A DNA stretch of 39,891 nucleotides from Escherichia phage HEMP4: the sequence record OR424387.1, one strand, 5' to 3'. Both the position numbers and the translations under genes were made by a program. Shown piece by piece: positions 6,346 to 35,177 of the stretch (positions are counted from its first letter, which is position 1; every line of letters begins with the position of its first letter). Under the pieces are notes generated by a model. It did not search any database and was not told where the DNA came from. It was given only the letters and a program-made list of their open reading frames with translations.

Positions 6346-6360
6346 TTACCGTTGAGGTAA
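6346..6360. promoter_or_regulatory. Operator-like palindrome TTACC-N5-GGTAA (left operator region, site 1)
   Basis: ttaccgttgaggtaa, perfect inverted repeat, intergenic upstream of leftward operon. Confidence 0.55.
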
Positions 6361-6407
6361 TGATTATGCGTATTTGGTTTGGTGTCAATAGATATGAGTT
6401 AAAAAAA

Positions 6408-6422
6408 TTACCCACAAGGTAA
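6408..6422. promoter_or_regulatory. Operator-like palindrome TTACC-N5-GGTAA (left operator region, site 2)
   Basis: ttacccacaaggtaa, perfect; 62 bp from site 1. Confidence 0.55.
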
Positions 6423-6479
6423 TCTTGCTGGCAATAAAAAAGCCGCCATGAGGCGGCTTACTTGCTGAAAACTATAGTT

Positions 6480-7064
6480 TTATTGTTTGCTTTTTTCGTT
6501 CTGGTTGATGACAAATTCAATGTAACTTTCGATCTTTGCTTTCTCGGTTTCGGGTAACAATGCGTAGCGCGAGCGGTCATAGTTGATAGTCGCAGGGTCG
6601 TGCGGGTGAATCAGTAATTCATAGCCGTGACGCCCGAATGCGGATGCAACATTCTCCAGGGTGGAAATGGAAACGCTGACCTCATTGTTTAACAGGCGGC
6701 TGATTGTCACCTGGGCGACGCCGGATGCGCGGTGAAGTTTTCCCTGTGTTGAAAGGTCGCGGCTTTCGCTCATCCAGCGTTCCAGGTTGTGAGCCGCCAG
6801 CTGACCAATGTCGCTTGGGCCGACAGGCTGAAAACCTTCCTGAGAAAGCGAGCGATCGATATCAAGCCAGTTACGGGGTTTATTGGCGGCAGCTTCAATT
6901 TTTCGCGCAACCTGGTCGCCGATAACCTTCTTACCAAGAGCCCAGCGGTTTACCAGATTTGCCTGAGTTCCAAGTTTTTCTGCCATCCGCGTCTGAACAC
7001 CATTGAATTCACGGTCGATCAAGTCGTTGAGATTTTGCCTGCGGACGTCCTGGATACTTTTCAT
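6480..7064 (-). CDS. Putative prophage repressor (HTH, no recognisable S24 peptidase domain)
   Basis: 194 aa, divergent from Cro-like gene with operator cluster between; N-terminal HTH-like segment TRMAEKLGTQANLVNRWALGKK; no Ala-Gly/Ser-Lys autocleavage module seen; no SD upstream of ATG. Confidence 0.55.
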   Translation of the reverse strand: MKSIQDVRRQNLNDLIDREFNGVQTRMAEKLGTQANLVNRWALGKKVIGDQVARKIEAAANKPRNWLDIDRSLSQEGFQPVGPSDIGQLAAHNLERWMSESRDLSTQGKLHRASGVAQVTISRLLNNEVSVSISTLENVASAFGRHGYELLIHPHDPATINYDRSRYALLPETEKAKIESYIEFVINQNEKSKQ

Positions 7065-7119
7065 TTTCTGGAAAATCGCCTCATATATGAATCAGTAGAT
7101 GATTCAATTTAAAGCAATA

Positions 7120-7182
7120 TTACCCAACAGGTAAATGCACCCCATAGGTAACTATCCTTGATTTTTGTTACCTTATGGGTGA
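7120..7182. promoter_or_regulatory. Right operator cluster: three TTACC-N5-GGTAA-type sites (7120..7134 perfect, 7137..7151 8/10, 7168..7182 9/10)
   Basis: ttacccaacaggtaa, gcaccccataggtaa, ttaccttatgggtga within the 154-bp divergent intergenic region. Confidence 0.6.
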
Positions 7183-7218
7183 ATATTTATTATCTGAAAT
7201 AAATATCAGGCAATAGCT

Positions 7219-7449
7219 ATGAGCGATAACGGACATTTCGATTTCAAAAAGCACTGGCTTGCACTTACTCCGGATGAGCGTGAAGCCTTCGCACAGGAAG
7301 CCGGAACGACGAGTCACTATATACAGACTCACTTAACAGGTAAGCGCAAAATGCCAGGTAAGGTATTGATGAATGGGCTTTTTAAAGCCTGTAAAACAAG
7401 ACAATGGCTGCGCTCAAAAGCAGAACTGGCATACTTCTTCTACTCATGA
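7219..7449 (+). CDS. Cro-like / YdaS-type HTH regulator
   Basis: 76 aa, divergent from repressor; LTPDEREAFAQEAGTTSHYIQTHL HTH-like segment. Confidence 0.6.
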   Translation: MSDNGHFDFKKHWLALTPDEREAFAQEAGTTSHYIQTHLTGKRKMPGKVLMNGLFKACKTRQWLRSKAELAYFFYS

Positions 7450-7472
7450 TATCCAGCCACAACCCTCTGTAG

Positions 7473-7494
7473 ACCGCCACCCGGCGGTCTTTTC
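7473..7494 (+). terminator. Rho-independent terminator after cro-like gene
   Basis: GACCGCC-accc-GGCGGTC followed by TTTT. Confidence 0.65.
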
Positions 7495-7597
7495 ATATCT
7501 ATTCGTACCTCAAAGGTAATAAAAAACCAAATCTGGTTGATCAAATTTTCCAATTGTGCAAAATAGCCAATATCAATAACAAAAAGGGGCGGAAAAA

Positions 7598-7810
7598 TTG
7601 AAGATAGTAACCAGAATGGAGGCCGCAAAAGCCGGGTTAAATCGCTATTTCACAGGAAAGCGGTGCCGTCACGGCCATCTCTCTGAAAGGTATGTTCTGA
7701 ACGGAACATGTGTTGAATGTGCAATGAATAGCGCCAACCGCTATCGTAATGAATTTGCTTGTGCACTAAAGAGTGCAAGAGGGGAAACCTATGGCAAGCA
7801 GCTGGATTAA
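7598..7810 (+). CDS. Small Cys/His-rich protein, possible zinc-binding regulator
   Basis: 70 aa, TTG start with AGGGGCGG upstream; CRHGH...CVEC motif; function not recognised. Confidence 0.4.
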   Translation: MKIVTRMEAAKAGLNRYFTGKRCRHGHLSERYVLNGTCVECAMNSANRYRNEFACALKSARGETYGKQLD

Positions 7811-8621
7811 GGTTGAAGTTATCACTCCTGATAAACCTGAAATTTTTCAGATAGCAGAAATTCTGGGTATTGATCCAGATGCTGTTCTTGGAAAGCTGGT
7901 TCGTATATGGGCATGGGCTGACCAGCAAACAATAGACGGTAACGCTGGCAGCGTTACAAAAGGAGTACTTGATAGACTCGCTTTTATTACAGGATTTGCT
8001 GACGCCCTCATTAGCGTCGGATGGCTTGCTTATCATGACGGCAAACTAATTCTTCCAAACTTTGAGCGACACAATGGAGAATCATCGAAAAAACGTGCAC
8101 TTACGAATAGAAGAGTGGCAGAGCATCGAAAACGAGTAACGCAAAAAGTAACGCCAACAGCGTTACAAAAGGAGTTACCAGAGGAAGAGGAAGAGGAAGA
8201 TATATATAAAACCCCACACATAGCGCACGTGCGCGAGGGTGCTCCGACCAGTGAAGCGAACAGTACGCCGTTGCAGGTGGCAGAACCTGAATTTCTGGAT
8301 GGCCTGAGTGAACCCATCGGGAAATTTCCGATGACAGATGGCTGGCTACCGTCGCCAGATTTTCGGCGGCGTGCTGCGCTGTGGGGAACGGCCCTGCCGG
8401 AACCGGAATTTACACCTGCTGAACTTGCTGCATTCCGGGATTACTGGATGGCTGAGGGCAAAGTGTTCACGCAGGTTCAGTGGGAACAAAAATTCGCCAG
8501 GCACGTAAATCATATCAGGGGAAAATCAAAAAATGCCGGGAAAAGCGATGAGCTTGACTGGAATAACACTGACTGGATAGAAGGGGTGTGGGATGAAATC
8601 AACTCCAGAACTTCTCAATGA
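7791..8621 (+). CDS. Replication initiation protein (O-like position, DnaT-like C-terminal region)
   Basis: ATG at 7791 with AAGAGGGG SD; occupies O position upstream of P-like gene; contains iteron-like DNA repeats; C-terminal AELAAFRDYWMAEGKVFTQVQWEQKFARHV resembles DnaT-like domain. Confidence 0.55.
   Translation: MASSWIKVEVITPDKPEIFQIAEILGIDPDAVLGKLVRIWAWADQQTIDGNAGSVTKGVLDRLAFITGFADALISVGWLAYHDGKLILPNFERHNGESSKKRALTNRRVAEHRKRVTQKVTPTALQKELPEEEEEEDIYKTPHIAHVREGAPTSEANSTPLQVAEPEFLDGLSEPIGKFPMTDGWLPSPDFRRRAALWGTALPEPEFTPAELAAFRDYWMAEGKVFTQVQWEQKFARHVNHIRGKSKNAGKSDELDWNNTDWIEGVWDEINSRTSQ
7939..7966. repeat. Iteron-like element 1 (GTAACGCTGGCAGCGTTACAAAAGGAGT)
   Basis: 28-bp sequence with internal inverted repeat AACGCTG/CAGCGTT; repeated at 8148..8175 in a different reading frame. 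Confidence 0.5.
8148..8175. repeat. Iteron-like element 2 (GTAACGCCAACAGCGTTACAAAAGGAGT), followed by (GAGGAA)x3 and AT-rich tract
   Basis: Near-identical to 7939..7966; extra AGTAACGC half-site at 8135..8142; (gaggaa)3 at 8181..8198 then tatatataaaa. Confidence 0.5.
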
Positions 8622-9369
8622 GTACGATCGCTTACGTGAGCATGGTGTTGCTGTGCATGAAGAGCGGCGTGACAGCAATGGCAAAAAGGAGCAGGTTGCT
8701 AGAATTTTCAATGAACTATTTGTCCAGTTACAGGCTGCATTTCCTGCAAGCGTTTCGACCATAAGGGAGCAGAACAAACTTAATGAATTCCGTAAGCAAT
8801 GGATGCTTGCGTTTCTGGAGAATGGGATCACTACAATGGAACAGGTTAACGCTGGTATGCGCCACGCCCGCGCCAGTGAATCTCCGTTCTGGCCGTCGCC
8901 AGGGCAATTCATCAAGTGGTGCAAAGACAGCAAGATGGTTCTTGGCGTCACCATTGACGATGTGATGGCGGAGTTTCACCGGTACAGCAAGGAAAAAAGT
9001 TTATATCCTGGTGGTCCCGAAAGATTCCCGTGGCGACATCCGGTTATGTACTGGGTCGTATGTGATACCCGCCGTGCAATGTATCAGCGCCAGCTTAGCG
9101 AGATTGAGGTTGAGAAACACGCGCGCAGGCTGCTCGATGATTGGGCGAAAAAGGTGGCTTCCGGACAGCAGATACCCGATCCGGTGATCAGCATACAGGC
9201 AAAGCCAGAACCCATGAGTACGCCTCCTGACACTGGGAGAGACGTTTACCATCCACCAGGGCGAAGTTTCGGGTGCATGCCTAACGCCGCCACCCTGGGG
9301 GGAATAACACCGGCGCAGTGGCTGATAGAGGAATACAGGCGGGGAAAGGCGGCAGGATTTATCAAGTAA
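8593..9369 (+). CDS. Replication protein P-like helicase loader
   Basis: 258 aa; NGITTMEQVNAGMR...PSPGQFIKWC closely resembles conserved core of lambda P. Confidence 0.8.
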   Translation: MKSTPELLNEYDRLREHGVAVHEERRDSNGKKEQVARIFNELFVQLQAAFPASVSTIREQNKLNEFRKQWMLAFLENGITTMEQVNAGMRHARASESPFWPSPGQFIKWCKDSKMVLGVTIDDVMAEFHRYSKEKSLYPGGPERFPWRHPVMYWVVCDTRRAMYQRQLSEIEVEKHARRLLDDWAKKVASGQQIPDPVISIQAKPEPMSTPPDTGRDVYHPPGRSFGCMPNAATLGGITPAQWLIEEYRRGKAAGFIK

Positions 9370-9406
9370 TACCAGCGCGATAGCGCATTTTTTTACGCCT
9401 ACATGA

Positions 9407-9421
9407 TTACCTGTTGGGTAA
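9407..9421. promoter_or_regulatory. Operator-like palindrome TTACC-N5-GGTAA
   Basis: ttacctgttgggtaa, perfect, intergenic. Confidence 0.5.
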
Positions 9422-9468
9422 CAAAATGTTCTAATCTCTATTGATTTCATGTCTTATGTGGTTTTTAA

Positions 9469-9483
9469 TTACCTAAGGGGTAA
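9469..9483. promoter_or_regulatory. Operator-like palindrome TTACC-N5-GGTAA overlapping RBS region of 9487 gene
   Basis: ttacctaaggggtaa, perfect, ends 4 nt before ATG. Confidence 0.5.
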
Positions 9484-9486
9484 ATC

Positions 9487-9831
9487 ATGAGAAAACAGAT
9501 ACAGGCTCTTGGTCGACTCAAAACAGGCCAAATGAACAAAACAGAATCTGCGTATTGCCAGCACCTTGAGCTGCGTAAACGTGCAGGAGAAATCGTCTGG
9601 TATCGATTTGAGGGTATCAAGCTGCGGTTAGCTGACAACACGTTCTATACGCCCGATTTTGCTGTGATGCTCGCCACCGGCGAGATGGAACTGCACGAAG
9701 TGAAAGGTTTCTGGACCGACGACGCCAGGGTGAAAACCAAAGTCGCCGCAGATCAGTATCCGTTCCGAATCATCGGGGTAACGGTTAAACCAAAGAAAGC
9801 AGGTGGTGGCTGGAACATCGAAGAGTTCTGA
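9487..9831 (+). CDS. DUF1064-like phage protein (PD-(D/E)XK-like fold)
   Basis: 114 aa; YTPDFAV...ELHEVKG pattern typical of DUF1064 proteins found beside replication genes. Confidence 0.6.
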   Translation: MRKQIQALGRLKTGQMNKTESAYCQHLELRKRAGEIVWYRFEGIKLRLADNTFYTPDFAVMLATGEMELHEVKGFWTDDARVKTKVAADQYPFRIIGVTVKPKKAGGGWNIEEF

Positions 9832-9892
9832 AGCGACGATCTTTTTAGTTATCAATGTAATCAATAAGTTATGTGGATAAGCGAGGGTAAAG

Positions 9893-11055: not shown

Positions 11056-11407
11056 AGCAAAATTACTTCTTTTATCGCGTTCGACGGGGTACGAGAAGCT
11101 ACCAATCAGCAATCACAAACGGGCGGTGATCGGCATGTTTGGTAGGGTGGTATTCGCATTTAACTATAAACCCACCGCGTCGCGGAACAGACGAGAGAAG
11201 GGGTACGCAGTGCGATGAAAAACCGTAAGGCAAAGATGCTGATAGCAAAGCCCGGGCAGCGTATCCGTATCTCAAATCGGCTTGTTATTTACTATAGATA
11301 TCTGGGTTTTAGGGGGTGTTCCTCTATTCGTTTTTACGGTGTCTGGCGAAACAGAAGCGCAGCACAAAACCGCTGGAAAAACCACTTTCGCACTAAAGGA
11401 GAGTGAT

Positions 11408-12241: not shown

Positions 12242-12591
12242 TGGACTATTCACAGTTAAGTGATTTTGAAATTAACAGAATGGTAGGAGACATAATTTTT
12301 AAAGGCCTTTGGGCGTGTAAACCGGAAACATCAGGGAATAACACCAACAAATGGTATTACGGAAATACTGATACAACTTTTGAGCCATTAAACCCTTTAC
12401 CTGACTACTGCAATAATCCATCGGATGCATGGCCTATTATTGTTGATAATAAAATCAGTCTAACCTGCCACCAATCTCGCGGTGAGTGGTCAGCTGTTTT
12501 TAATGTCGAGAACATTTGCTTTCATGCGAATAATCCACTCCGAGCCGCCATGATTGTATTTCTCATGATGCAGGAAAATCAGAATGGCTAA
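12241..12591 (+). CDS. Hypothetical nin-region-like protein (116 aa)
   Basis: Start overlaps stop of upstream gene (TGATG); ORF track 12094..12591 trimmed to coupled ATG. Confidence 0.5.
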   Translation: MDYSQLSDFEINRMVGDIIFKGLWACKPETSGNNTNKWYYGNTDTTFEPLNPLPDYCNNPSDAWPIIVDNKISLTCHQSRGEWSAVFNVENICFHANNPLRAAMIVFLMMQENQNG

Positions 12592-12922
12592 ATCAGCAGC
12601 AGAGCGCAAAGCCGCTCAGAGAGCCAGACAAGCTGCATCTGGTGTGCGTAAGCTGGAGATTGTGCTTGATGCTCAGGAAATTGAAATGCTTGAGCGTAAC
12701 TGTGCCGCACGTCGCCCCGGGCGTGCGCCTTACGAATTTGGTGAGTATATAGCGTTACTGATCCGCCAGGATGATGCACGCGTGCGCGGGCGTATAAAAT
12801 CGATCAGTAGAAAACGTTGCGGTAAGTGCGGCGAGAGAGTTCCCGTTAATTCATGCCCGTGTAATGGTGACTCGCAATGCTGGGTGACTAAAGGCTGGTA
12901 TGAAACGAAATTAATAGTGTGA
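12584..12922 (+). CDS. Putative DNA-binding regulator with C-terminal Cys-rich zinc-ribbon-like tail
   Basis: 112 aa; basic N-terminus ERKAAQRARQAASGVRKLEIVLD (ribbon-helix-helix-like) and CGKCGERVPVNSCPCNGDSQC; last gene before packaging operon; stop codon lies inside GTGACATGTCAC palindrome. Confidence 0.5.
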   Translation: MAKSAAERKAAQRARQAASGVRKLEIVLDAQEIEMLERNCAARRPGRAPYEFGEYIALLIRQDDARVRGRIKSISRKRCGKCGERVPVNSCPCNGDSQCWVTKGWYETKLIV

Positions 12923-12930
12923 CATGTCAC
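12919..12930. promoter_or_regulatory. Palindrome GTGACATGTCAC, copy 1
   Basis: Perfect 12-bp palindrome overlapping TGA stop of 12584..12922; also at 15184 and 32792. Confidence 0.5.
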
Positions 12931-12971
12931 GAGTAGATTATGCATGATGAATTTGACGGGTTTTGAATACT

Positions 12972-12997
12972 GCCGCCAACTATGGCGGCTTTATTTT
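12972..12997 (+). terminator. Rho-independent terminator
   Basis: GCCGCC-aactat-GGCGGC followed by TTTATTTT. Confidence 0.65.
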
Positions 12998-13008
12998 GCA
13001 TGGTACTA

Positions 13009-13041
13009 TTACCACAACGGTAACTATTACCACGGTGGTTA
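13009..13041. promoter_or_regulatory. Two operator-like sites upstream of terS (13009..13023 perfect; 13027..13041 9/10)
   Basis: ttaccacaacggtaa and ttaccacggtggtta. Confidence 0.5.
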
Positions 13042-13637
13042 TGATGCCTGCTGAACCTAAAACCTATAAACGCAAATCAACGCAATTTAAGCCACTAACA
13101 GCAATGCAGGAGGCTTATTGCCAGTCATACATCAAAACGCCTGAAAACCAGACTCAGGCAGCGATTAACGCAGGATTCTCCCCAAATACAGCGGCAGTTA
13201 AAGCCAGTGTCATGATGCGCGATGAACGCATTCAGAAACGGATTGCCGAGTTGATGGAGGAGCGCAACAAACGAATGCGCGTCAGTGCTGATTACGTTCT
13301 CATGCGCCTGGTGGAGATCGACCAGATGGACGTTATCGACATCCTCAACGACGATGGGAGCCTTAAACCAATCCGTGAGTGGCCGAAAATCTGGCGCACT
13401 ACGCTTAGTGGCTTTGATCTGTCATCGACCATCATGAACATGAACGAGGATTCGATAGAGACAATCCTCAAAAAAATTAAATGGCCTGACAAGGTGAAGA
13501 ACCTTGAGCTGATTGGTAAGCATGTTGATGTCAATGCGTTCAAAGAACGTCTGGATGTTAATGTGAATGTGACAATTGCTGATCGCATAGCGGCAGCCAG
13601 GAAGAGACTGAAAGAACGTCAGGATGGCAATCAGTGA
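13041..13637 (+). CDS. terS: Terminase small subunit
   Basis: ORF 12963..13637 trimmed to ATG 13041; TPENQTQAAINAGFSPNTAAVKASVMM matches Terminase_2-type small subunit signature; directly upstream of terL. Confidence 0.8.
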   Translation: MMPAEPKTYKRKSTQFKPLTAMQEAYCQSYIKTPENQTQAAINAGFSPNTAAVKASVMMRDERIQKRIAELMEERNKRMRVSADYVLMRLVEIDQMDVIDILNDDGSLKPIREWPKIWRTTLSGFDLSSTIMNMNEDSIETILKKIKWPDKVKNLELIGKHVDVNAFKERLDVNVNVTIADRIAAARKRLKERQDGNQ

Positions 13638-15159: not shown

Positions 15160-15184
15160 AGCCAGCTCATAGGCTGGCTGTTTG
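15160..15184. terminator. Bidirectional hairpin terminator between convergent terL and moron gene
   Basis: AGCCAGC-tcatag-GCTGGCT; T-rich tail on minus-strand side (TTGTTTTAT), weaker on plus. Confidence 0.55.
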
Positions 15185-15195
15185 TGACATGTCAC
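15184..15195. promoter_or_regulatory. Palindrome GTGACATGTCAC, copy 2 (within 14-bp palindrome TGTGACATGTCACA)
   Basis: Perfect palindrome adjacent to terminator. Confidence 0.5.
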
Positions 15196-15199
15196 AGAG

Positions 15200-15622: not shown

Positions 15623-15820
15623 GATCTCACCTTAAAAAAATGCCCAGCGAACCGGGCGAACTGGAAGCAATGAGTTATGCCTTCCGTGGCTGTACGGGTT
15701 TACAGCATGAAGTCATCGCAATGGCGTCCTGCTGTAAAAAGGGCGGTGATAGTCCTTCAAGGGAAACCATCACCGCCAAGCACCTGGAACTTCTGGCATC
15801 ACGGTCCTTAGGCGTGATTC

Positions 15821-15897
15821 TGGCGCGGCATGCAGGATTCGAACCTGCGACCAACCGCTTAGAAGGCGGTTGCTCTGTCCAACTGAGCTAATGCCAC
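15821..15897 (-). tRNA. tRNA-Arg (anticodon UCU)
   Basis: Reverse complement folds as cloverleaf: acceptor GTGGCAT/ATGCCGC (one G-U), D-arm GCTC-AGTTGGACA-GAGC, anticodon stem ACCGC/GCGGT with loop CTTCTAA (anticodon TCT), T-arm GCAGG-TTCGAAT-CCTGC, discriminator G, CCA end; 77 nt. Confidence 0.85.
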
Positions 15898-16219: not shown

Positions 16220-16234
16220 TTACCTGAAAGGTAA
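16220..16234. promoter_or_regulatory. Operator-like palindrome TTACC-N5-GGTAA upstream of portal operon
   Basis: ttacctgaaaggtaa, perfect, followed by TAATAAT. Confidence 0.5.
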
Positions 16235-16324
16235 TAATTCGTGCGTTAAATGTCAACTGTCTACGATAAATAAATCATATGTGGTTAAATTGGTAATAAT
16301 TTAATTGCGTACGGAGTCATTGAT

Positions 16325-19230: not shown

Positions 19231-20217
19231 ATGGCTGTTAAAGGCTTAACTGCGCTAACGCTGGCTGACTGGGGTAAGCGCGTCGATCCAAACGGGAAAG
19301 TCGATAAGATTATCGAGCTTCTCGGTCAAACTAACCCGATCCTTCAGGATATGCCTTTTGTCGAAGGGAACCTTCCTACCGGACACCGAACCACCATTCG
19401 TTCTGGTTTACCTTCAGCTACCTGGCGTTTGCTGAACTATGGCGTACAGCCAAGCAAATCAACCACAGTGCAGGTAACCGATTCCGTTGGCATGCTGGAA
19501 ACCTATGCGGAAGTCGATAAGTCACTGGCTGATCTGAACGGCAATACCGCCGAATTCCGCCTGTCTGAAGACCGCGCATTTATTGAAGCGATGAATCAGC
19601 AGATGGCGCAGACGCTGTTTTATGGTGATTCCAGCGTTAACCCTCAGCAGTTTATGGGACTGTCCTCCCGCTATTCCAGCCTGTCTGCGGGTAATGCTCA
19701 GAATATCATTGATGCTGGTGGCACGGGTACAGATAACACCTCAATCTGGTTAGTGGTGTGGGGCGAAAACACCGTGCATGGCATCTTCCCGAAAGGGCAG
19801 AAGGCTGGCATCCAGATGGAAGATAAAGGCCAGGTGACACTGGAAGATGCTAATGGCGGCAAGTACGAAGGCTATCGCACCCATTACAAATGGGATAACG
19901 GACTTGCTCTGCGTGACTGGCGTTATGTTGTTCGCATTGCAAACATCGATGTCAGCAATCTTTCAGAACCATCCTCTGCCGCAAATATTGCGAAGTTGAT
20001 GGTTAAAGCACTACATCGCATTCCAAACCGTGGCATGGGCCGCCCGGTGTTCTACATGAACCGCACTGTAGGCCAGGCTCTTGATCTGCAGTCTCTGGAG
20101 AAAACATCTCTGGCTATCAGCGTAAAAGAGACAGAAGGCGAGTGGTGGACTTCATTCCGTGGTGTACCAATCCGTGAAACTGATGCGCTTCTGGAAACAG
20201 AAGCCCGCGTGGTGTAA
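19231..20217 (+). CDS. Major capsid protein
   Basis: About 330 aa, strong SD, position after scaffold, followed by stem-loop; ORF track start 19225. Confidence 0.75.
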   Translation: MAVKGLTALTLADWGKRVDPNGKVDKIIELLGQTNPILQDMPFVEGNLPTGHRTTIRSGLPSATWRLLNYGVQPSKSTTVQVTDSVGMLETYAEVDKSLADLNGNTAEFRLSEDRAFIEAMNQQMAQTLFYGDSSVNPQQFMGLSSRYSSLSAGNAQNIIDAGGTGTDNTSIWLVVWGENTVHGIFPKGQKAGIQMEDKGQVTLEDANGGKYEGYRTHYKWDNGLALRDWRYVVRIANIDVSNLSEPSSAANIAKLMVKALHRIPNRGMGRPVFYMNRTVGQALDLQSLEKTSLAISVKETEGEWWTSFRGVPIRETDALLETEARVV

Positions 20218-25511: not shown

Positions 25512-28024
25512 TGCCAGTCGTACCAACAGTATCCGGACGTCAGGTTGAGAGCCGTGGAGTTCAGTCAGCAGGCTTGCAGACGTTTTCTCAGCCAGGTATT
25601 GGTGATGCTTTTGTTCGGGCAGGGGCAGAGGCTATTGATGTTTTTGGTCAGGCAAAACAGCGTGCCAATATCGCTCTGGCTCAGGAGGCATCTCTTAACC
25701 TCAGTCAGATAAGCAGTGATCTGCTGAATAATCCTGAAACAGGATTGCTTAACCTGAAAGGGAAAAATGCTATTGGAAAAGGCCATGAGTATACGCAGCA
25801 GTTTGATGCTCAGGTCGAACAACTGGCTATGTCGCTGCCGGATGAACAGGCTCGTAATGCTTTCATGCAGCAGGCGCAGCAGCAGCGCATTCAGTTCACT
25901 ACGCAGGCAGGGCGGCACGAGATAGGGCAAATAAATGCCTACGAAGAAGGCCAGTTTCAGGCTACGCTGCTGAACAATGGTAAAAATGCCGCAGCATTGT
26001 ATGGCGACAACGCCGCATACGTATTGGCTAATAAGCAAACTTTCCAGCAAATTGAGGATTACGGCATTGCACATGGCTGGAGTGACGAGCAAATCCAGGC
26101 CAAGAAAATCGAGTTTAAAGAAGCAACAGCAAAAGCAACTGCTCAAAATGCTATTGGAGCAAACTATCTTCAGGTAAGACAGCAAAACGGCGAGTTAAGC
26201 GATACTGCTGCTGGATCTCGCCGTGCTGTAGCAGATAGTGGCTCTTTCGATCGTACCCGCGGTATACGCAACAATAACCCCGGCAATCTTGAATACAGCA
26301 AAACTAATCCGTGGGTTGGGCAGACAGGTGATGATGGTCGCTTTGCTAAATTCGAAACACCTGAACACGGTATTCGTGCATTAGGGCGGAACCTGATGTC
26401 GTATCAGCGGCAGGGTATTGATACCGTCAGCGAGATAATTAATCGCTGGGCACCGCCCACTGATAAAAATGACACAATGTCGTATATCAAAGCAGTGTGC
26501 GAACAACTTGGCGTTTCTGCTGATGAGTCTCTCGATGCATCTAATCCGGATACCCTGAAGGCGCTTTGTGCAGCCATTATCCATCATGAAAACGGTAGCC
26601 AGCCATACAGTGATCAGCAGTTAACTGATGGTGTTAGTGCTGCGCTGGGGCTTTCTCAGCTACCGACAAAAAATAAACGTTATACCGGTGTAGCTTGGTT
26701 CGATGCTTTAAGTGAATCAGATCAGGCCAGCGTGTTGCGACAGACTGATGCACTAGCCAGACAACAGCAGGCTGAATATAAAACGATGCTCGACAGCCGG
26801 GTTCGCGATGCGACGGCTGCGTATATGCGTGGCGTTGAATTTCCTAACCCACCTGGTGAGGATGATTTTATTGCAGCTTATGGAGTCAGAGAAGGAAACC
26901 TGCGATATACCGAGTTTAAGAATACGCAGATCGCCGGACAGTATATAGGCTCTTTCCGCAACATGCCGACAAGCAGCATTACAGCATATGTTGAGCAATT
27001 ACGCCCGGATACTGGTGATACAGGGGAGGGGTATGCGGCACGCGCAGCTCTTTATGACAACGTTGTTTCGGCTGCAAATCAGGTGATAAAGCAGCGGCAG
27101 TCGGATCCTGTGCAGTTCTCTCTTGCCTCCGGACAGGCAAAGCCTATCGACATGAGCAATAAGGATAACTTTGGACAGAGCGTTGCCTTGCGTGCCGCTC
27201 AGGTCAGTGACCTTGCTAAGTCATATGGCACTCCACTGACGTTCTTTTCCAAAGACGAGGCCAATCAGATCGGTGTTTTCTTTCGTGATGCTCCAGTTTC
27301 CCAACAGGCAGCATATCTCGATACCATCAGGCAGAGCACTGGTGGTGGGCAGGTGTATATGTCAGCACTACAGCAGATCAGTGCCAACGCTCCATCTGCT
27401 GCCGTTGCCGGGATACTGATGGATAAGCCTGGTGGTATTTTGGCAGAAAAAAACTGGTTTAATCCGGATGTTTCCGTGTCTCCTGAAACCGCTGCGCAGA
27501 CAATTCTTGCTGGCGCGGCGGCTCGTAAAGGTACTGATGATGCGAAAGGTATTCCGATGCCTAAAGATGCTGATCTTCGCCTTGAGTTTTCTGACATGGT
27601 GAAGGATGCATTTGCTGGTGACGCTCAGGGGGCATCAATGGCATACGAGATCGCAAAGGATTATTACGCTGGTGTGATGGCGAAAAAAGGCGTGGTATCA
27701 GGCGAAATTGACAATGATGTCTGGAAACAGGCTGTTAACGTAGCTACAGGTGGCGTGCATGACTATAACGGAATGGGGAATGTCCTTTTGCCGTGGGGAA
27801 TGTCTGCAGAGCAATTCGATAAGCAGGTTAATCAGGCTTGGAATGAACAAGTTGTCGGCTCTGGGATAAAAACACCGCCTGGTCAGTATGGTTTGCAAAG
27901 TTACGGCGATAGTCAGTACCTGGTGAAACTTGGTACTGGTTATCTGCTGAAAGATGATGGTTCTCCCGTTGTTCTTAATCTGACACAGAAGCGTCAGAGA
28001 TTCTCCGGAGATATTCCGCAATGA
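25511..28024 (+). CDS. Large internal virion / ejection protein (837 aa)
   Basis: ATG after GGAGGA SD (ORF track 25436..28024 trimmed); position and size analogous to podovirus core proteins. Confidence 0.5.
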   Translation: MPVVPTVSGRQVESRGVQSAGLQTFSQPGIGDAFVRAGAEAIDVFGQAKQRANIALAQEASLNLSQISSDLLNNPETGLLNLKGKNAIGKGHEYTQQFDAQVEQLAMSLPDEQARNAFMQQAQQQRIQFTTQAGRHEIGQINAYEEGQFQATLLNNGKNAAALYGDNAAYVLANKQTFQQIEDYGIAHGWSDEQIQAKKIEFKEATAKATAQNAIGANYLQVRQQNGELSDTAAGSRRAVADSGSFDRTRGIRNNNPGNLEYSKTNPWVGQTGDDGRFAKFETPEHGIRALGRNLMSYQRQGIDTVSEIINRWAPPTDKNDTMSYIKAVCEQLGVSADESLDASNPDTLKALCAAIIHHENGSQPYSDQQLTDGVSAALGLSQLPTKNKRYTGVAWFDALSESDQASVLRQTDALARQQQAEYKTMLDSRVRDATAAYMRGVEFPNPPGEDDFIAAYGVREGNLRYTEFKNTQIAGQYIGSFRNMPTSSITAYVEQLRPDTGDTGEGYAARAALYDNVVSAANQVIKQRQSDPVQFSLASGQAKPIDMSNKDNFGQSVALRAAQVSDLAKSYGTPLTFFSKDEANQIGVFFRDAPVSQQAAYLDTIRQSTGGGQVYMSALQQISANAPSAAVAGILMDKPGGILAEKNWFNPDVSVSPETAAQTILAGAAARKGTDDAKGIPMPKDADLRLEFSDMVKDAFAGDAQGASMAYEIAKDYYAGVMAKKGVVSGEIDNDVWKQAVNVATGGVHDYNGMGNVLLPWGMSAEQFDKQVNQAWNEQVVGSGIKTPPGQYGLQSYGDSQYLVKLGTGYLLKDDGSPVVLNLTQKRQRFSGDIPQ

Positions 28025-29823: not shown

Positions 29824-29828
29824 ATTAA

Positions 29829-32303: not shown

Positions 32304-32312
32304 GGAAGTGTT

Positions 32313-32486
32313 GTGTTTTTAATTATTTTGAGTGTGATAATTTCTGGTGGATTGTTATTTATTGACCGCTACAAATATTTTCTTAACCCTCAGACTCAAG
32401 CTATTTGCTGGTTCATCTTTGTTGTGCAGGGAGTAGTTCTTGTTGCAAGCCTTATTGAGGGGAGGCCTCTTATTTTTACTGGGTAA
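32313..32486 (+). CDS. Small hydrophobic protein (57 aa), putative membrane protein
   Basis: Hand-translated from GTG 32313 (AAGGA SD 6 nt upstream): MFLIILSVIISGGLLFIDRYKYFLNPQTQAICWFIFVVQGVVLVASLIEGRPLIFTG; below ORF-track cutoff. Confidence 0.3.
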   Translation: MFLIILSVIISGGLLFIDRYKYFLNPQTQAICWFIFVVQGVVLVASLIEGRPLIFTG

Positions 32487-32498
32487 ATAGGTGACTAC

Positions 32499-32795
32499 AT
32501 GCAAGCTATAGGATTCATTGTTTATATCGTCGTTGGTCTTTTTCAGTTGGCAGCAATTATGGCTGGGCTTGAATCATGGTGGGGATTGCACTGGATAATT
32601 GCAGCCCCCATTGCTTTCATCGTGAGCTATATTCCATTTGTTGGAGCGATTGTTGGTATGGTTGGCGCTGTGGATGTATGGCGGTGGGAGTGGTGGCAGG
32701 CTGGCCTTCTCTTCTTTGGTGGGATCATCTTTGCTATTGTCTGCGGTGGAATGTCATCATTTTTCGAATGGCTATCATTCAGAAAAGGGACGTGA
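32499..32795 (+). CDS. Small integral membrane protein (98 aa, about 3 TM segments)
   Basis: Highly hydrophobic; AGGTGA SD; stop codon inside GTGACATGTCAC palindrome, then terminator. Confidence 0.5.
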   Translation: MQAIGFIVYIVVGLFQLAAIMAGLESWWGLHWIIAAPIAFIVSYIPFVGAIVGMVGAVDVWRWEWWQAGLLFFGGIIFAIVCGGMSSFFEWLSFRKGT

Positions 32796-32803
32796 CATGT
32801 CAC
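32792..32803. promoter_or_regulatory. Palindrome GTGACATGTCAC, copy 3
   Basis: Perfect 12-bp palindrome overlapping TGA stop, directly followed by terminator. Confidence 0.5.
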
Positions 32804-32804
32804 A

Positions 32805-32828
32805 GGCCGCTTTCGCGGCCTTGTTTTT
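32805..32828 (+). terminator. Rho-independent terminator
   Basis: GGCCGC-tttc-GCGGCC followed by TTGTTTTT. Confidence 0.7.
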
Positions 32829-33054
32829 AACGAATGCCACCGCCGCCCGGGCGGGAATCCGCAGAACGCCCACCGCAGCGGGAGCCGTCAGCGGCAGTGT
32901 CGCTGTCGTGCTGACAACGACCGGCAAAGGCCTGAGTTGAAGCTACCAGAGACAACAAAACGAACAGTGCAGCAAATGCTTTTTTCATTGTGAAATTTCC
33001 ATCTATAAGCCACCTCAATGTGGCGTCAATGAGTGTAGCACTGACTTTTGTTTC

Positions 33055-33083
33055 GTCCACAAAAAAGCCCGCAGCGCGGGCTA
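33055..33083 (-). terminator. Rho-independent terminator for moron cassette
   Basis: On minus strand TAG-CCCGC-gct-GCGGGC followed by TTTTTT; stop codon embedded in stem. Confidence 0.7.
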
Positions 33084-33521
33084 TTCTTCTTCATCATTAA
33101 AAAGCGGATTGTTGTTTCCATCTGATGAAAGGAAAGGTATGTGTTCTCTTGAAAATCCAACAATGACAATTTCATTATCATTTTTTGCATAATGAATGCA
33201 TTCATTAGAATGCCTTCCGCTAGGGTTGAAATTTAAGTTAATGGTATAATTCTTAAATGTGTTTGGATACCATGTTGGCCCACAATGATAATGCCAATAA
33301 TTCTCTTGCTCATAATTGTCTGAGCCGGGAATTTTATCATGGTTATCATCAACCCATGAGGGCTTGTTTTTTCCAACAAGCGCCCTTCCATTGGCAACAT
33401 CCTCTAAAAAACTTTGTATGATTTTTATTTCATCATCAGTAAGGAAAGGTCCGTCTACAGCGAAAGGGGTGTTGCTTTCCCCATGTAGAAAACTATTAGA
33501 TATTCTAATGTTAAACTTCAA
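33081..33521 (-). CDS. Hypothetical moron protein B (146 aa), AT-rich, acidic C-terminus, probable TTG start
   Basis: ORF track 33081..33662; no in-frame ATG after upstream gene stop; TTG at 33521 sits 7 nt after AGGAG; Asn/Asp/Glu-rich with HYHCGP and C-terminal NDEEE. Confidence 0.5.
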   Translation of the reverse strand: MKFNIRISNSFLHGESNTPFAVDGPFLTDDEIKIIQSFLEDVANGRALVGKNKPSWVDDNHDKIPGSDNYEQENYWHYHCGPTWYPNTFKNYTINLNFNPSGRHSNECIHYAKNDNEIVIVGFSREHIPFLSSDGNNNPLFNDEEE

Positions 33522-33541
33522 GGAAAACTCCTGATGTGCTT

Positions 33542-33709
33542 CTATTTGGAGCGAAATGCCGCCTTGAAGTCGCTGAAAGATGTTCCTGTCTGGTAAACCA
33601 TATCCTTGTCGCGCTCTTTGCTTGCGCGGCCAAGCATAACTTTTCCAATGACATCCCAGCATTGCTTGGCTTGTTCATTGTGCTGAGTACGATTTTTCAA
33701 CGCTGTCAT
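33542..33709 (-). CDS. Hypothetical small moron protein A (55 aa)
   Basis: Hand-translated MTALKNRTQHNEQAKQCWDVIGKVMLGRASKERDKDMVYQTGTSFSDFKAAFRSK; GGAGG SD 6 nt upstream; operator-like site just upstream. Confidence 0.4.
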   Translation of the reverse strand: MTALKNRTQHNEQAKQCWDVIGKVMLGRASKERDKDMVYQTGTSFSDFKAAFRSK

Positions 33710-33721
33710 ATCGCGCCTCCT

Positions 33722-33736
33722 TTACCTTTAAGGTAA
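33722..33736. promoter_or_regulatory. Operator-like palindrome TTACC-N5-GGTAA upstream of moron cassette
   Basis: ttacctttaaggtaa, perfect, followed by TATTAC. Confidence 0.5.
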
Positions 33737-33779
33737 TATTACGCGAATCTACATCACATCGCCAATGATTATTTTAAAG

Positions 33780-34045
33780 GCACATCCCTGTGCCGCCGCC
33801 CGTCAGAAGAACCCAGCCTTGTCGTTGATGTACTCCGCGTGGGTCTGGATATCACGCAGGCATTTGCTCACACCGACGATGTAGCAGAACATGGTGGTCA
33901 GCTCCGCCGCCGCGCCCGATACGTCGTGCCCGTCTTCCTGTAACTGGTTCAGCAGATTCATCAGCAGTGAGTTCTCCGTCAGGCCGAGAACACCAGACGG
34001 CGAATGAATCAGGCTACGGTAGCCGGGCTTCAGTGGGGCACTGTA
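33780..34045. repeat. Internal direct repeat copy B (matches 1578..1842)
   Basis: Same as copy A. Confidence 0.85.
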
Positions 34046-34513
34046 GGTTTTGTTCTCTATCTTCATCGCCTGCATTACTGCTGACGCCGTGGCGTTGGCT
34101 ACCTGGTCGGCAACCATCTTTATGCGTTCTTCCTGCGGGAGCGAGTTTTTAATGTAACTTCCGGTGCGGCGGATCTGAGGAAGAACCTCACCTGTAACCC
34201 ATTTACGAAAGCGGTAGGGGATAGTGCCTGGTGTCACTGCGTCGCGGCAGCGGAGGATCAGTGTGTAGAGGCCTGACTCGGAGATGATGTTGATCTCTTT
34301 TACTCGGCTGTCAAAAATTGCACGATGTTCATGCCCTATGTTGAACATAGACCTTTCATCATCATCCAGTTTTTCAAGTGCTTGGGTGACGTTTTGGATG
34401 CGCAGCGCACTACAAACGTCTTGGGCTACAAACCATGGTTGGCCATCGATAATGATGGAACGGATAGGGTTAACAGATTCAAATTTGAAGATGGCAGTTT
34501 GAGCATTAGCCAT
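33803..34513 (-). CDS. Bro-N domain antirepressor-like protein with shared C-terminal domain
   Basis: ATG at 34513 (ORF track GTG 34528); N-terminal AIFKFESVNPIRSIIIDGQPWFVAQDVCSAL is classic Bro-N; C-terminal 80 aa identical to C-terminus of 1600..2256 gene. Confidence 0.75.
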   Translation of the reverse strand: MANAQTAIFKFESVNPIRSIIIDGQPWFVAQDVCSALRIQNVTQALEKLDDDERSMFNIGHEHRAIFDSRVKEINIISESGLYTLILRCRDAVTPGTIPYRFRKWVTGEVLPQIRRTGSYIKNSLPQEERIKMVADQVANATASAVMQAMKIENKTYSAPLKPGYRSLIHSPSGVLGLTENSLLMNLLNQLQEDGHDVSGAAAELTTMFCYIVGVSKCLRDIQTHAEYINDKAGFF

Positions 34514-34667
34514 GGTGGTTATCTCCACTTAGTGATTTTAATCACCACCGCAACGCCAATTACTGGTGGTGAACTGGACAAGGTTGGCGTACCGGCCTAA
34601 GTGGTACCGGCGTCCTTTCGGACCCCTGCCCAGCCCACCATAATTCGGATATAGCTGTGCTTAACGC

Positions 34668-34780
34668 ATAAAAAAACCACGTCTGGCGTGGTATGCGCCA
34701 CTTAGTAACTCGGGACGCCAATCCCGGCACTGGATTTTGCCAGTGCCTGATTACTATGGCACAAGAGGAGTGCGATGTAA
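34668..34780 (-). ncRNA. Candidate structured small RNA or leader upstream of Bro-N gene
   Basis: Minus-strand noncoding segment with stem-loops GGCACTGG-caaaat-CCAGTGCC and CGGGA-ttggcg-TCCCG, ending in terminator ACCACG-ccaga-CGTGGT plus U7; begins just downstream of operator-like site. Confidence 0.3.
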
Positions 34781-34782
34781 AT

Positions 34783-34797
34783 TTACCGCAAAGGTAA
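34783..34797. promoter_or_regulatory. Operator-like palindrome TTACC-N5-GGTAA
   Basis: ttaccgcaaaggtaa, perfect. Confidence 0.5.
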
Positions 34798-34828
34798 ATA
34801 TAAGCACTCCACTTGGTAATTGCAAACC

Positions 34829-35086
34829 TTATCTGGTTTGCTTTCGTAATTGTTCGGCACAATAGTCGAGATGTGTTTGCAGATCCCGCATAGACATCTG
34901 TGAGCTGGTGACGTAGTTAATCAGTGCAGTCAGTTCGGCAAGTGGGCCATCGACATTAAATCCATCCTTATCGAGATCCCGGAGTAATTTCATCAAGTGC
35001 GATCCCTCCACCAGTGACCTGACGCCTCCCGGCGTGTGAATCCTTTCGGTAAATCCGTCTTCCAGTGGATAGTGATACTGCTGCAT
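34829..35086 (-). CDS. Small antirepressor-like protein (85 aa), free-standing homolog of the shared C-terminal domain; LexA box upstream
   Basis: ATG 35086 with GGAGAA SD (ORF track TTG 35104); IHTPGGVRSLVEGSHLMKLL...DGPLAELTALINYVTSSQMSMRDLQTHLDY aligns with [20 protein letters not shown]...[30 protein letters not shown] of the two larger proteins. Confidence 0.6.
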   Translation of the reverse strand: MQQYHYPLEDGFTERIHTPGGVRSLVEGSHLMKLLRDLDKDGFNVDGPLAELTALINYVTSSQMSMRDLQTHLDYCAEQLRKQTR

Positions 35087-35105
35087 CTTATCTTCTCCAT
35101 GCAAT

Positions 35106-35125
35106 AACTGTATAAATATACAGTA
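35106..35125. promoter_or_regulatory. LexA (SOS) box
   Basis: aaCTGTataaatatACAGta: CTGT-N8-ACAG with AT-rich spacer, matching consensus; 20 bp upstream of small Ant-like gene start. Confidence 0.7.
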
Positions 35126-35162
35126 TCAAATAATTTGTTTGCTATCCAGCACGTTTTGCAAA

Positions 35163-35177
35163 TCACCTGAAAGGTAA
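35163..35177. promoter_or_regulatory. Operator-like site (9/10 match, TCACC-N5-GGTAA)
   Basis: tcacctgaaaggtaa between LexA box and tailspike start. Confidence 0.4.

Follow-up and report, generated by a model that had tools for sequence, protein, structure and literature searches.

The palindrome TTACC-N5-GGTAA, which occurs in nine perfect copies in the window (the whole stretch of 39,891 nucleotides analysed, from Escherichia phage HEMP4, OR424387.1), very probably represents the operators of the prophage repressor Rep (6480..7064), which would hold nearly all transcription units silent until released by the antirepressor Ant. The window is an integrated Uetakevirus prophage of the epsilon15/phiV10 type in E. 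coli, bounded by att cores at 111-127 and 39875-39891. As the same sites are annotated as repressor-binding in the related phage epsilon15, the palindrome set is an already known feature, found here in a new prophage. The GenBank record of epsilon15 (AY150271) contains seven sites labelled 'protein_bind', repressor, lysogeny, with the sequence ATTACC-N5-GGTAAT, of which four precede terS, gp3/portal, tailspike and ruvC and three lie to the left of the repressor gene. The 15-17-bp palindrome of the HEMP4 prophage, (A)TTACC-N5-GGTAA(T) with an A/T centre, is identical in sequence to these features, and the epsilon15 slots to the left of rep, at the rep/cro switch, and before the ruvC/DUF1064 gene, terS, gp3 and tailspike are filled. 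The sequence-only reading had proposed one DNA-binding protein contacting almost every transcription unit in a non-lambdoid layout; this equals the published annotation of epsilon15, the type phage of the genus, and we infer the binding.

The motif scan located the nine perfect copies at 6346, 6408, 7120, 9407, 9469, 13009, 16220, 33722 and 34783, exactly as first read by eye, while shuffled sequences had 0.01 on average and never more than 1. The earlier chance figure of about 0.04 perfect sites matches the composition-based expectation (observed/expected 229). When up to one mismatch was allowed, 14 sites were found against 0.63 expected, the five additional sites being 261, 7168, 7505, 13027 and 35163. 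These had been listed as 8-9/10 variants together with 7137 (GCACCCCATAGGTAA), which carries two mismatches (8/10 match) and is located 17 bp from 7120; a second perfect site occupies its slot in epsilon15, SPC32H and BUCT711, at the same 17-bp offset.

The gene map used to separate coding from non-coding DNA was obtained by tblastn transfer from ZX5 and phiV10, plus ORF and PHROG checks, and 8.1% of the window was non-coding. The supposed restriction to intergenic regions was borne out by the full scan, which asked about equal motif density in coding DNA: all 14 sites with at most one mismatch were outside genes and none was coding (0.081^14, about 5e-16), and 7137 was also non-coding. The remaining 28 two-mismatch matches were all within coding sequence and look like background. 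Sites 13009 and 13027 fall within the longer, TTG-initiated terS ORF of the phiV10 annotation; the ATG start at 13044, used by ZX5 and epsilon15, leaves both intergenic. Rep-type sites occur in ten regions from 261 to 35177, and the operators are not confined to two clusters flanking the repressor gene. The sites are:

261..275: 9/10 site in the attP arm, 42 nt upstream of int
6346..6360: proximal predicted operator of O_L; begins on the last -10 base of the leftward promoter TTGACA(6388-6383)-17-AATCAT(6365-6360)
6408..6422: distal predicted operator of O_L, 62 bp from the proximal one
7120..7134: predicted switch-region operator a, rep side
7137..7151: predicted switch-region operator b, 8/10, 17 bp from a
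7168..7182: predicted switch-region operator c, 9/10, within the spacer of the rightward promoter TTGTTA(7165-7170)-17-TATTAT(7188-7193)
7505..7519: predicted operator, 9/10, past the cro-like terminator and before the replication operon; conserved 337 bp from c
9407..9421: distal predicted operator of O_E, before the DUF1064 operon
9469..9483: proximal predicted operator of O_E, 62 bp from its distal partner; its end lies 3 nt ahead of the DUF1064 ATG
13009..13023: predicted terS operator, directly past the terminator at 12972-12989; epsilon15 equivalent at 12-27 annotated as repressor-binding
13027..13041: second predicted terS operator, 9/10, 18 bp from the first; ends 2 nt before the terS ATG
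16220..16234: predicted operator of the gp3/portal structural operon; epsilon15 equivalent annotated at 2931-2947
33722..33736: predicted operator for an accessory, moron-like unit read leftward; its first T is also the last base of the -10 TAATAT (33741-33736)
34783..34797: predicted operator at the leftward promoter TTGCAA(34825-34820)-17-TATATT(34802-34797), toward isrK-like and C4-like RNAs and the Bro-N gene
35163..35177: predicted operator, 9/10, in the ant-tailspike interval; takes up the spacer of TTGCAA(35156-35161)-16-TATCTT(35178-35183); epsilon15 equivalent annotated at 19895-19911

The right half-site had been described as often running into a -10-like TAAT. This held for some promoters, where the site takes up the spacer between -35 and -10 and GGTAA is closely followed by the -10, but not for others, where the -10 is directly upstream and its last base is the first T of TTACC. 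The predicted spacer-filling sites are 7168 at the rightward promoter, 35163 at the tailspike promoter and probably 16220 at gp3, while 6346 (leftward), 9469 (DUF1064), 33722 and 34783 would extend from the last -10 base over the transcription start. The first base of site 9469 is the final T of the -10 in TTGATT(9441-9446)-17-TTTAAT(9464-9469), and in the 33722 unit AGGAGG and the ATG of a 55-aa ORF follow 12 nt further on. As the promoter scan found no convincing sigma-70 promoter at the terS pair, 7505 or 261, overlap between operator and promoter is not established at these sites. The identity of 261 as a Rep operator is also uncertain: it overlaps the equivalent of the predicted integrase arm site of epsilon15 (26873-26882), and the GGTAT mismatch at its slot recurs in six of seven genomes, with TATAC, on the opposite strand, in BUCT711.

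Related phages carry the motif, a check suggested in the sequence-only reading: TTACC-N5-GGTAA was the most enriched palindrome in all seven Uetakevirus genomes (8-11 perfect copies each). The intergenic slots are common to the seven genomes, with kept spacings of 62, 17-18, 48, 337, 380 and about 712 bp; the O_L pair is separated by 62 or 63 bp in all seven, and the O_E module (9407/9469) is conserved in five. Across the genus, the half-sites are invariant, the centre is A/T and the remaining spacer is variable. When orthologous promoter regions were aligned, the columns without variation were those of the half-sites, the -10 and the -35 CTATTGA; in the region of 6346, half-sites and -35 are invariant. 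Site 16220 forms the 5′ edge of a nearly invariant 90-nt leader of gp3, whose conservation begins exactly at the operator.

The regulatory genes and elements accompanying these sites are:

6480..7064, minus strand: rep, prophage repressor with two HTH domains; 5D50_A (SPC32H Rep), E 3.5e-42, residues 1-190
7219..7449, plus strand: Cro-like HTH protein of 76 aa, encoded first in the rightward operon; match to phrog_35 ('transcriptional repressor') at E 5.6e-13
7471-7490: terminator after the cro-like gene
33803..34528, minus strand: Bro-N protein with a C-terminal Ant-like domain, predicted second antirepressor; Pfam Bro-N, E 1e-19
34562-34645, minus strand: C4-like antisense RNA; Rfam RF01695, 66 bits, above the gathering score
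34670-34746, minus strand: isrK-like sRNA; Rfam RF01394, 67.2 bits, above the gathering score
34832..35086, minus strand: ant, by homology a small antirepressor disassembling Rep; 5D50_E, E 1.4e-46
35108..35123: perfect LexA box CTGTATAAATATACAG, covering the predicted ant -10 (TATATT, 35120-35115)

The only matches of Rep were SPC32H Rep and HTH families; in Pfam it hit HTH families alone, namely HTH_3 (106-147) and, weakly, a YdaS-type HTH (21-61); Peptidase_S24 was not among the matches. The C-terminus of Rep aligns to the tetramerisation and Ant-binding domain of SPC32H Rep (5D4Z). Rep is 99.5% identical to the ZX5 and phiV10 repressors, and the N-terminal recognition helix NLVNRW is invariant among repressors that are otherwise 42-44% identical. 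In unrelated Pseudomonas, Moraxella and Acinetobacter phages the repressors share the N-terminal domain only, and their genes adjoin palindromes of the form TTACC-N4-GGTAA or TAACC-N5-GGTTA, or of TTACT type. PseuP_224, which has a homologous DNA-binding domain, carries sites flanking cI only in the 31.7 kb examined, and possesses a Q-type antiterminator.

The dispersed sites might instead be read mainly by the Cro-like protein, for example for turning early promoters down or switching units in lytic growth, with Rep acting only at the switch; we regard this as improbable. The Cro-like protein is conserved better than Rep in the genus (58-84% versus 42-78% identity), its AGTTSHYIQ.HLT stretch and putative recognition helix are invariant, and its PHROG label is transcriptional repressor. 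Mcat9, JBD68, Turba, an Acinetobacter phage and PseuP_224 (there as an unannotated ORF) have a recognisable relative divergent to the repressor gene, so that the Cro-like protein follows the half-site family no less than the Rep N-terminal domain. Since both proteins are co-conserved wherever the motif occurs, and all phages examined that have the Rep N-terminal domain also have a Cro-like homologue, they are inseparable as binders by comparative genomics. However, the late, lysis and antirepressor units need silencing in the lysogen, where Rep is present, and the epsilon15 annotation credits the repressor with the sites. Overproduced Rep alone abolishes late transcripts in ZX5, endolysin and holin mRNA being reduced by 99.97-99.99% (PMC9782041), and the 62-bp and 17-18-bp pairing fits the Rep tetramer described for SPC32H (PMC9638917). 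The Cro-like protein is probably a co-user of at least the switch-region sites. In lambdoid switches the operators are common to CI and Cro; therefore, binding by the Cro-like protein would supplement, not replace, binding by Rep.

It is very unlikely that the palindromes are promoter elements bound by some other protein, be it a transcription factor of the host or an activator of the phage, rather than operators. TerS, gp3 and 7505 lack a good sigma-70 promoter, like activator-dependent promoters, and the identical motif is present in phages that infect four host genera, which is what one would expect of a conserved host factor. Against this, the palindrome also lies on strong, constitutive-looking early promoters (TTGACA-17-AATCAT, 6388-6360), a protein at the spacer and +1 positions would block RNA polymerase, and the half-site family tracks the repressor N-terminal domain into Pseudomonas, Moraxella and Acinetobacter phages; we know of no enterobacterial factor with a TTACC-N5-GGTAA site. 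That the palindromes act as leader RNA hairpins, for example as processing sites or by sequestering ribosome-binding sites, is scarcely credible: 9469 and 13027 do end 2-3 nt before start codons, overlapping the Shine-Dalgarno region, and the terS pair can be folded into a structure of -11.3 kcal/mol, but single-site folds are weak (-3.5 to -5.9 kcal/mol) and four of five, with the exception of 6346, were equalled or beaten by 5-25 of 200 shuffles, the arms are kept in sequence beyond what pairing alone needs, in four of the five one-mismatch variants a pair is lost and not compensated, and many sites are located upstream of or inside the promoter, outside the transcript.

We observed the motif, how far it exceeds chance, where it lies with respect to genes and promoter-like hexamers, how well it is conserved, and the homologies of Rep and Ant; from these we infer binding, silencing, looping and the order of events in repression by Rep. 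Rep would be of the epsilon15/SPC32H type, with a DNA-reading N-terminal HTH, a second HTH-like domain and a C-terminal tetramerisation and Ant-binding domain, and without a self-cleavage domain. In SPC32H, Rep is a tetramer on palindromic DNA and is disassembled by Ant (PMC9638917; PMC9986798). Each (A)TTACC-NNWNN-GGTAA(T) site may accept one pair of Rep N-terminal domains. A second site lies exactly 62 bp upstream at two promoters, and sites are 17-18 bp apart at two other places; such pairs would fit a Rep tetramer with two DNA-binding dimers clamping or looping the promoter. Predicted operators are carried by the early-left, switch, replication, early-right, terminase, structural, accessory, antirepressor and tailspike units, and one protein would therefore silence the whole prophage directly, not only atop a cascade. 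Induction would proceed without Rep cleavage: DNA damage would lift LexA off the box at 35108-35123 over the ant promoter, and the Ant then made would take Rep tetramers apart, so that all promoters would be freed together. A similar CTGTAT-N4-AYACAG box is located in the ant slot of phiV10, epsilon15, SPC32H and Tyrion. The C-terminus of the Bro-N protein is 43% identical to Ant (E 2e-16), and the ZX5 homologue has been shown to tip the phage toward lytic growth (PMC9782041).

The palindromes AACCATATATGGTT and GTGACATGTCAC, likewise conserved, are missing from the epsilon15 annotation and are not accounted for by the Rep-operator model. The centre of AACCATATATGGTT is about 2, 4 or 5 helical turns from the Rep site at the replication, gp3/portal, Bro-N antirepressor and tailspike promoters. 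AACCATATATGGTT also precedes the lysis genes, a cassette with no TTACC-N5-GGTAA site in the HEMP4 prophage, and replaces a -35 at three late units, while GTGACATGTCAC adjoins the terminators closing the early-right, terminase and structural operons. We tentatively suggest that Rep operators are only one control layer and that AACCATATATGGTT and GTGACATGTCAC could be sites for further phage regulators, although this is on balance doubtful. Candidate binders are the Cro-like protein, the second HTH domain of Rep, or a 112-aa protein (12584..12922) with a strand-helix-helix start and a four-cysteine end. The gene for the latter is the last of the early-right ORFs, among which no Q-type antiterminator family was found, and belongs to phrog_536, an uncharacterised 'transcriptional regulator'. 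If this is true, Rep release would not suffice for late transcription in the genus, which would also need an activator of its own or a factor acting on terminators; such a circuit has yet to be described.

The prophage resembles lambda, 434 and P22 in having three sites between divergently oriented repressor and cro genes, in a second cluster at the leftward promoter, and in the proposed reading of 15-17-bp palindromes with an A/T-rich uncontacted centre by HTH dimers. Unlike these phages, it has at least ten site regions instead of two, its Rep has no S24 self-cleavage domain, and induction is proposed to occur via an antirepressor. The gp71 stoperators of mycobacteriophages L5 and Bxb1 and the conserved inverted repeats of the Streptomyces phage phiC31 repressor are likewise many sites in short intergenic regions genome-wide, as here. 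L5/Bxb1 stoperators are asymmetric, oriented with transcription and block elongation; stoperator identity was rejected, the sites here being perfect palindromes on promoter cores.

In phage P1, the C1 repressor acts at numerous scattered operators, one of which, Op51, precedes the immI operon c4-icd-ant. As in P1, one repressor is proposed here to act directly on many scattered promoters, and an antirepressor gene lies behind a C4-type antisense RNA (Rfam C4) under a promoter with a predicted repressor site (34783): TTGCAA-17-TATATT abuts this operator, and the isrK-like and C4-like RNAs (34562..34746) occupy the leader between it and the Bro-N antirepressor gene. The operators of P1, 17-mers of the ATTGCTCTAATAAATTT type, lack symmetry, unlike the symmetric sites here, and C1 is unrelated in sequence to Rep; the resemblance is one of layout only, not of family membership.

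The closest system is that of epsilon15 and SPC32H, with which the prophage shares the palindrome, its slots and spacings, sites upstream of the late units terS, gp3/portal and tailspike, full-length Rep and Ant homology, and the LexA box at ant. Rep here is only about 43% identical to the Salmonella-phage Rep, the G+C content of operator spacers is about 33% compared with about 15% in epsilon15, and the site before the lysis genes is missing. In contrast to epsilon15 and SPC32H, the HEMP4 prophage carries two more Ant-domain proteins, and additional sites at the accessory unit (33722) and at the C4/isrK-Bro-N antirepressor operon (34783).

A sequence-only reading of this DNA had reported nine perfect copies of the palindrome TTACC-N5-GGTAA, and all nine were recovered at exactly the reported starts (6346, 6408, 7120, 9407, 9469, 13009, 16220, 33722 and 34783, by which the sites are named here), against a mean of 0.01 copies in shuffled sequence. 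When up to one mismatch was allowed, 14 copies were found in the window against 0.63 expected, and site 7137 is an additional 8/10 match. On a gene map obtained by transferring ZX5 and phiV10 proteins by tblastn and checking the remaining ORFs, 8.1% of the window is non-coding; all 14 sites (up to one mismatch) fall in this non-coding DNA (chance about 5e-16), and the remaining two-mismatch matches fall within genes like background. The reported restriction to intergenic regions is confirmed. A role as restriction or methylation sites was rejected by reasoning, as such sites should be avoided or evenly spread, not enriched in non-coding DNA only.

The att core ATTGAGTGGGAATGATT is present near both ends of the window (111-127 and 39875-39891) and was identified in the ZX5 paper as the attachment core for integration at the 3′ end of guaA (PMC9782041); the window is therefore a prophage in its integrated state. 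The 110 bases that precede the left att core presumably come from the host (the guaA 3′ end, according to the same paper). The prophage belongs to Uetakevirus, with Escherichia phages ZX5, TL-2011b and phiV10 as nearest relatives, and nearly identical prophages are contained in sequenced E. coli chromosomes. In an unbiased count of every 5-Nx-5 palindrome, TTACC-N5-GGTAA ranked first in each of seven genomes of the genus (window, ZX5, phiV10, epsilon15, SPC32H, Tyrion and Klebsiella phage BUCT711), with 8-11 perfect copies per genome, and the motif scan showed that their intergenic slots and spacings are shared between the genomes. Pairs 62 bp apart at the leftward promoter and upstream of the DUF1064/ruvC gene, and pairs 17-18 bp apart at the switch between rep and the cro-like gene and upstream of terS, are conserved in the genus; further shared distances are 48, 337, 380 and about 712 bp. 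The consensus from pooled sites is A-TTACC-NNWNN-GGTAA-T.

The relation of the sites to promoters, as inferred from sequence, is of two types. In the first, the operator would lie within the spacer between -35 and -10. In the second type, the operator would start on the last T of the -10 hexamer and cover the start point.

Predicted promoters and their sites
Site 7168: spacer-type, rightward promoter, TTGTTA-17-TATTAT
Site 35163: spacer-type, tailspike promoter, TTGCAA-16-TATCTT
Site 6346: -10-abutting type, TTGACA-17-AATCAT
Site 9469: -10-abutting type, TTGATT-17-TTTAAT
Site 33722: -10-abutting type, TTGGCG-18-TAATAT
Site 34783: -10-abutting type, TTGCAA-17-TATATT

The leftward and DUF1064 promoters share a conserved module, consisting of a distal operator, 47 bp containing CTATTGA(C/T) and the -10, and a proximal operator, in which half-sites and promoter hexamers are invariant and spacers vary freely. 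At 62 bp, the two sites are about six helical turns apart, a separation compatible with one tetramer bound to both. At gp3, the 90 nt from operator to ATG are nearly invariant, and the sequence upstream of the operator is unalignable between genomes. No convincing sigma-70 promoter was found at the terS pair, 7505 or 261, and the role of site 261 is uncertain because it overlaps a predicted integrase arm site in epsilon15.

Several smaller features were observed around these regions. A 55-aa ORF (33542-33709, minus strand; full-length phrog_8607) has an AGGAGG ribosome site, and its start lies 12 nt past operator 33722. The 193-aa ORF that overlaps it (33081-33662, minus strand) is similar to phrog_5954 from residue 49 onwards only, which makes a true start downstream of the 55-aa gene probable. 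At 7183-7206, the inverted repeat ATATTTATT-N6-AATAAATAT, with perfect 9-bp arms, lies over the rightward -10 and the leader of the cro-like gene; it is present in Tyrion and absent from epsilon15, and may have arisen by chance as it is A/T-rich. The 433 bp of non-coding DNA before gp3 begin at a tRNA-Arg (UCU) gene (15821-15897, minus strand), which overlaps in antisense the end of an 83-aa ORF (15640-15891) that is annotated as a hypothetical protein in relatives.

The 194-aa product of 6480..7064 (minus strand) aligns end to end with Rep, the repressor of SPC32H (5D50_A, E 3.5e-42). Two regions of HTH type are present in it, and an S24 peptidase domain was not found. Secondary sources describe SPC32H Rep as a tetramer that binds palindromic DNA, with DNA-binding pairs formed from different dimers (PMC9638917, PMC9986798). 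The repressors of the genus are 42-78% identical to Rep of the window, yet the N-terminal helix NLVNRW is invariant. More distant repressor loci were reached by tblastn against annotated phages; the repressors of these unrelated phages share only the N-terminal domain of Rep, fused to a LexA-like C-terminus. Their repressor genes are adjoined by TTACC-N4-GGTAA in Pseudomonas phages PseuP_224 and JBD68, by TAACC-N5-GGTTA in Turba, by TTACT-type repeats in an Acinetobacter phage, and by a degenerate TTACC-N5-GRTAA in Moraxella Mcat9. Since the four sites of PseuP_224, which carries a Q antiterminator, flank only cI in the 31.7 kb examined, the genome-wide spread of sites is a feature of the Uetakevirus lineage. 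Half-sites are identical across repressors with only about 43% identity, and the N5 spacers vary by lineage, with a G+C content by hand count of about 33% in the window, 15% in epsilon15 and 4% in BUCT711. If these phages are heteroimmune, specificity may reside in the uncontacted spacer or in the flanks.

That the Cro-like protein (7219..7449, plus strand) serves as a second reader of the sites beside Rep is quite possible. Its AGTTSHYIQ.HLT segment is invariant, and Cro-like relatives are recognisable beside all of the distant repressors; an attempt to tell Rep from Cro by phyletic pattern failed as both co-occur in every relative, and for this reason the comparative data cannot decide between Rep alone and Rep together with Cro. 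It is unlikely that the Cro-like protein is the sole reader, because silencing is needed in the lysogen. Binding by a host factor or an activator is also unlikely, given that the sites occupy predicted blocking positions on strong early promoters and that, in other host groups too, the phage repressor domain is accompanied by half-sites of this family. The notion that the palindromes act as RNA hairpins was rejected, as single-site folds are weak (-3.5 to -5.9 kcal/mol), the arms are conserved as sequence and not as pairing, and a base pair is lost with no compensatory change in four of the five one-mismatch variants.

Recognition of the sites by Rep has a precedent in the GenBank record of the type phage epsilon15 (AY150271), in which seven 'protein_bind, repressor, lysogeny' features have the sequence of the TTACC-N5-GGTAA palindrome; they are located before terS, gp3/portal, tailspike and ruvC, and three lie to the left of the repressor gene. 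The proposal in the sequence-only reading that one DNA-binding protein contacts nearly all transcription units is therefore already the published, annotation-based reading for epsilon15. On all sequence-level defining features tested, each of which was found here, the sites of the window are assigned to the epsilon15/SPC32H Rep-operator system. Judged from GenBank features and secondary citations, the finding is already known, sites and protein having been described for epsilon15 and SPC32H; no details on the motif, or on operators of these phages, came from searches of the literature. Overproduction of the ZX5 repressor, which is 99.5% identical to Rep of the window, stopped free-phage production and lowered endolysin and holin mRNA by 99.97-99.99% (PMC9782041). 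These data fit silencing of late genes by Rep, either direct or indirect.

The Ant domain, which binds Rep, was found in three proteins, and Rfam elements precede two of their genes.

Ant-domain proteins and Rfam RNA elements
1600-2286, minus strand: AntA fusion, Ant-domain protein
2298-2387, minus strand: sRNA-Xcc1 element (Rfam), directly upstream of the AntA antirepressor gene
33803-34528, minus strand: Bro-N fusion, Ant-domain protein
34562-34746, minus strand: isrK-like Hfq-binding sRNA and C4 antisense RNA (Rfam), Bro-N leader, downstream of operator 34783
34832-35086, minus strand: small Ant, LexA-controlled

The small protein (85 aa) is homologous to Ant, the antirepressor of SPC32H (5D50_E, E 1.4e-46). 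The predicted ant -10 is covered by a perfect LexA box, CTGTATAAATATACAG (35108-35123), and a similar LexA-type box is present at the ant slot in relatives. In SPC32H, Rep reportedly remains uncleaved during SOS and ant is said to be controlled by LexA. One non-cleavable repressor sitting directly on nearly every promoter would keep the prophage silent, and an SOS-controlled antirepressor would free all promoters in one step. The tetrameric Ant breaks up the SPC32H Rep tetramer, according to secondary sources (PMC9638917, PMC9986798), and overproduction of the ZX5 Bro-N antirepressor favoured lytic growth (PMC9782041). Because Rfam elements precede both genes, both large antirepressors appear to be under RNA-level control, as in P1 immI. 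The Bro-N and AntA fusions are identical over about 80 aa at their C-termini, which implies a direct DNA repeat estimated at roughly 250 bp with copies about 32 kb apart.

Two companion palindromes were also detected. The first, AACCATATATGGTT (AACCA-N4-TGGTT), is conserved and occurs nine times with up to one mismatch (1.46 expected), five of these copies being intergenic; the second, GTGACATGTCAC, is a perfect 12-bp palindrome present three times (about 0.002 expected).

Companion palindromes and a nearby gene
7525-7538: AACCATATATGGTT, starting 20 bp beyond a Rep site start
9450-9463: degenerate AACCATATATGGTT
16273-16286: AACCATATATGGTT, 53 bp beyond a Rep site start
34825-34838: AACCATATATGGTT, 42 bp beyond a Rep site start
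35204-35217: AACCATATATGGTT, 41 bp beyond a Rep site start
37895-37908: AACCATATATGGTT before the lysis genes, no Rep site in the window
12919-12930: GTGACATGTCAC
15184-15195: GTGACATGTCAC
32792-32803: GTGACATGTCAC
12584-12922, plus strand: last early-right gene, 112-aa protein, phrog_536 'transcriptional regulator', uncharacterised

The slots of AACCATATATGGTT are conserved in phiV10, epsilon15, SPC32H, Tyrion and BUCT711, as are its offsets from Rep sites in relatives, and in the first four of these phages a Rep site lies 44 bp upstream of the lysis-unit copy. At gp3, tailspike and lysis, AACCATATATGGTT is placed 7-8 nt upstream of a -10-like hexamer lacking a -35; the epsilon15 record carries no annotation of it. 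Each copy of GTGACATGTCAC adjoins an intrinsic terminator ending an operon (early-right, terminase or structural), and those at 12919 and 32792 overlap the stop codon of the preceding gene. Most of the seven genomes match all three positions; in phiV10 and Tyrion, the early-right copy coincides with the end of the record. Compared by eye, neither motif fits, to our knowledge, IHF, DnaA box, CRP, matS (GTGAC-N3-GTCAC) or SlmA sites in spacing or core bases. The product of 12584..12922 is a candidate late regulator. It ends in CxxC...CxC...C (four cysteines) and has no Pfam or PDB relative; its single-sequence AlphaFold model (pLDDT 46) is too poor for a fold search, and only the strand-helix-helix pattern at residues 22-62 is suggestive.

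As the sites and the protein were already described for epsilon15 and SPC32H, the present results add little as discovery, and novelty, if any, would come from the two companion motifs, which are unexplained, and from the three Ant-domain proteins. The results do suggest how a common group of E. coli, Salmonella, Klebsiella and Enterobacter prophages stays silent. In the annotation of Uetakevirus prophages, promoters and operon boundaries can be reliably recognised by the sites, and for engineering of phiV10 or epsilon15 as reporter or therapeutic phages the sites indicate the DNA to keep or remove for expression control.

Among known systems, the arrangement resembles C1 immunity of P1 in having one repressor with many scattered operators, and in the C4-type antisense RNA and isrK-like sRNA (Rfam) between operator 34783 and the Bro-N antirepressor gene, although Rep is not known to be related to C1. 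It differs from lambda in that the system operates without self-cleavage, the sites are distributed over ten regions, and no recognisable Q was found among the early-right genes.
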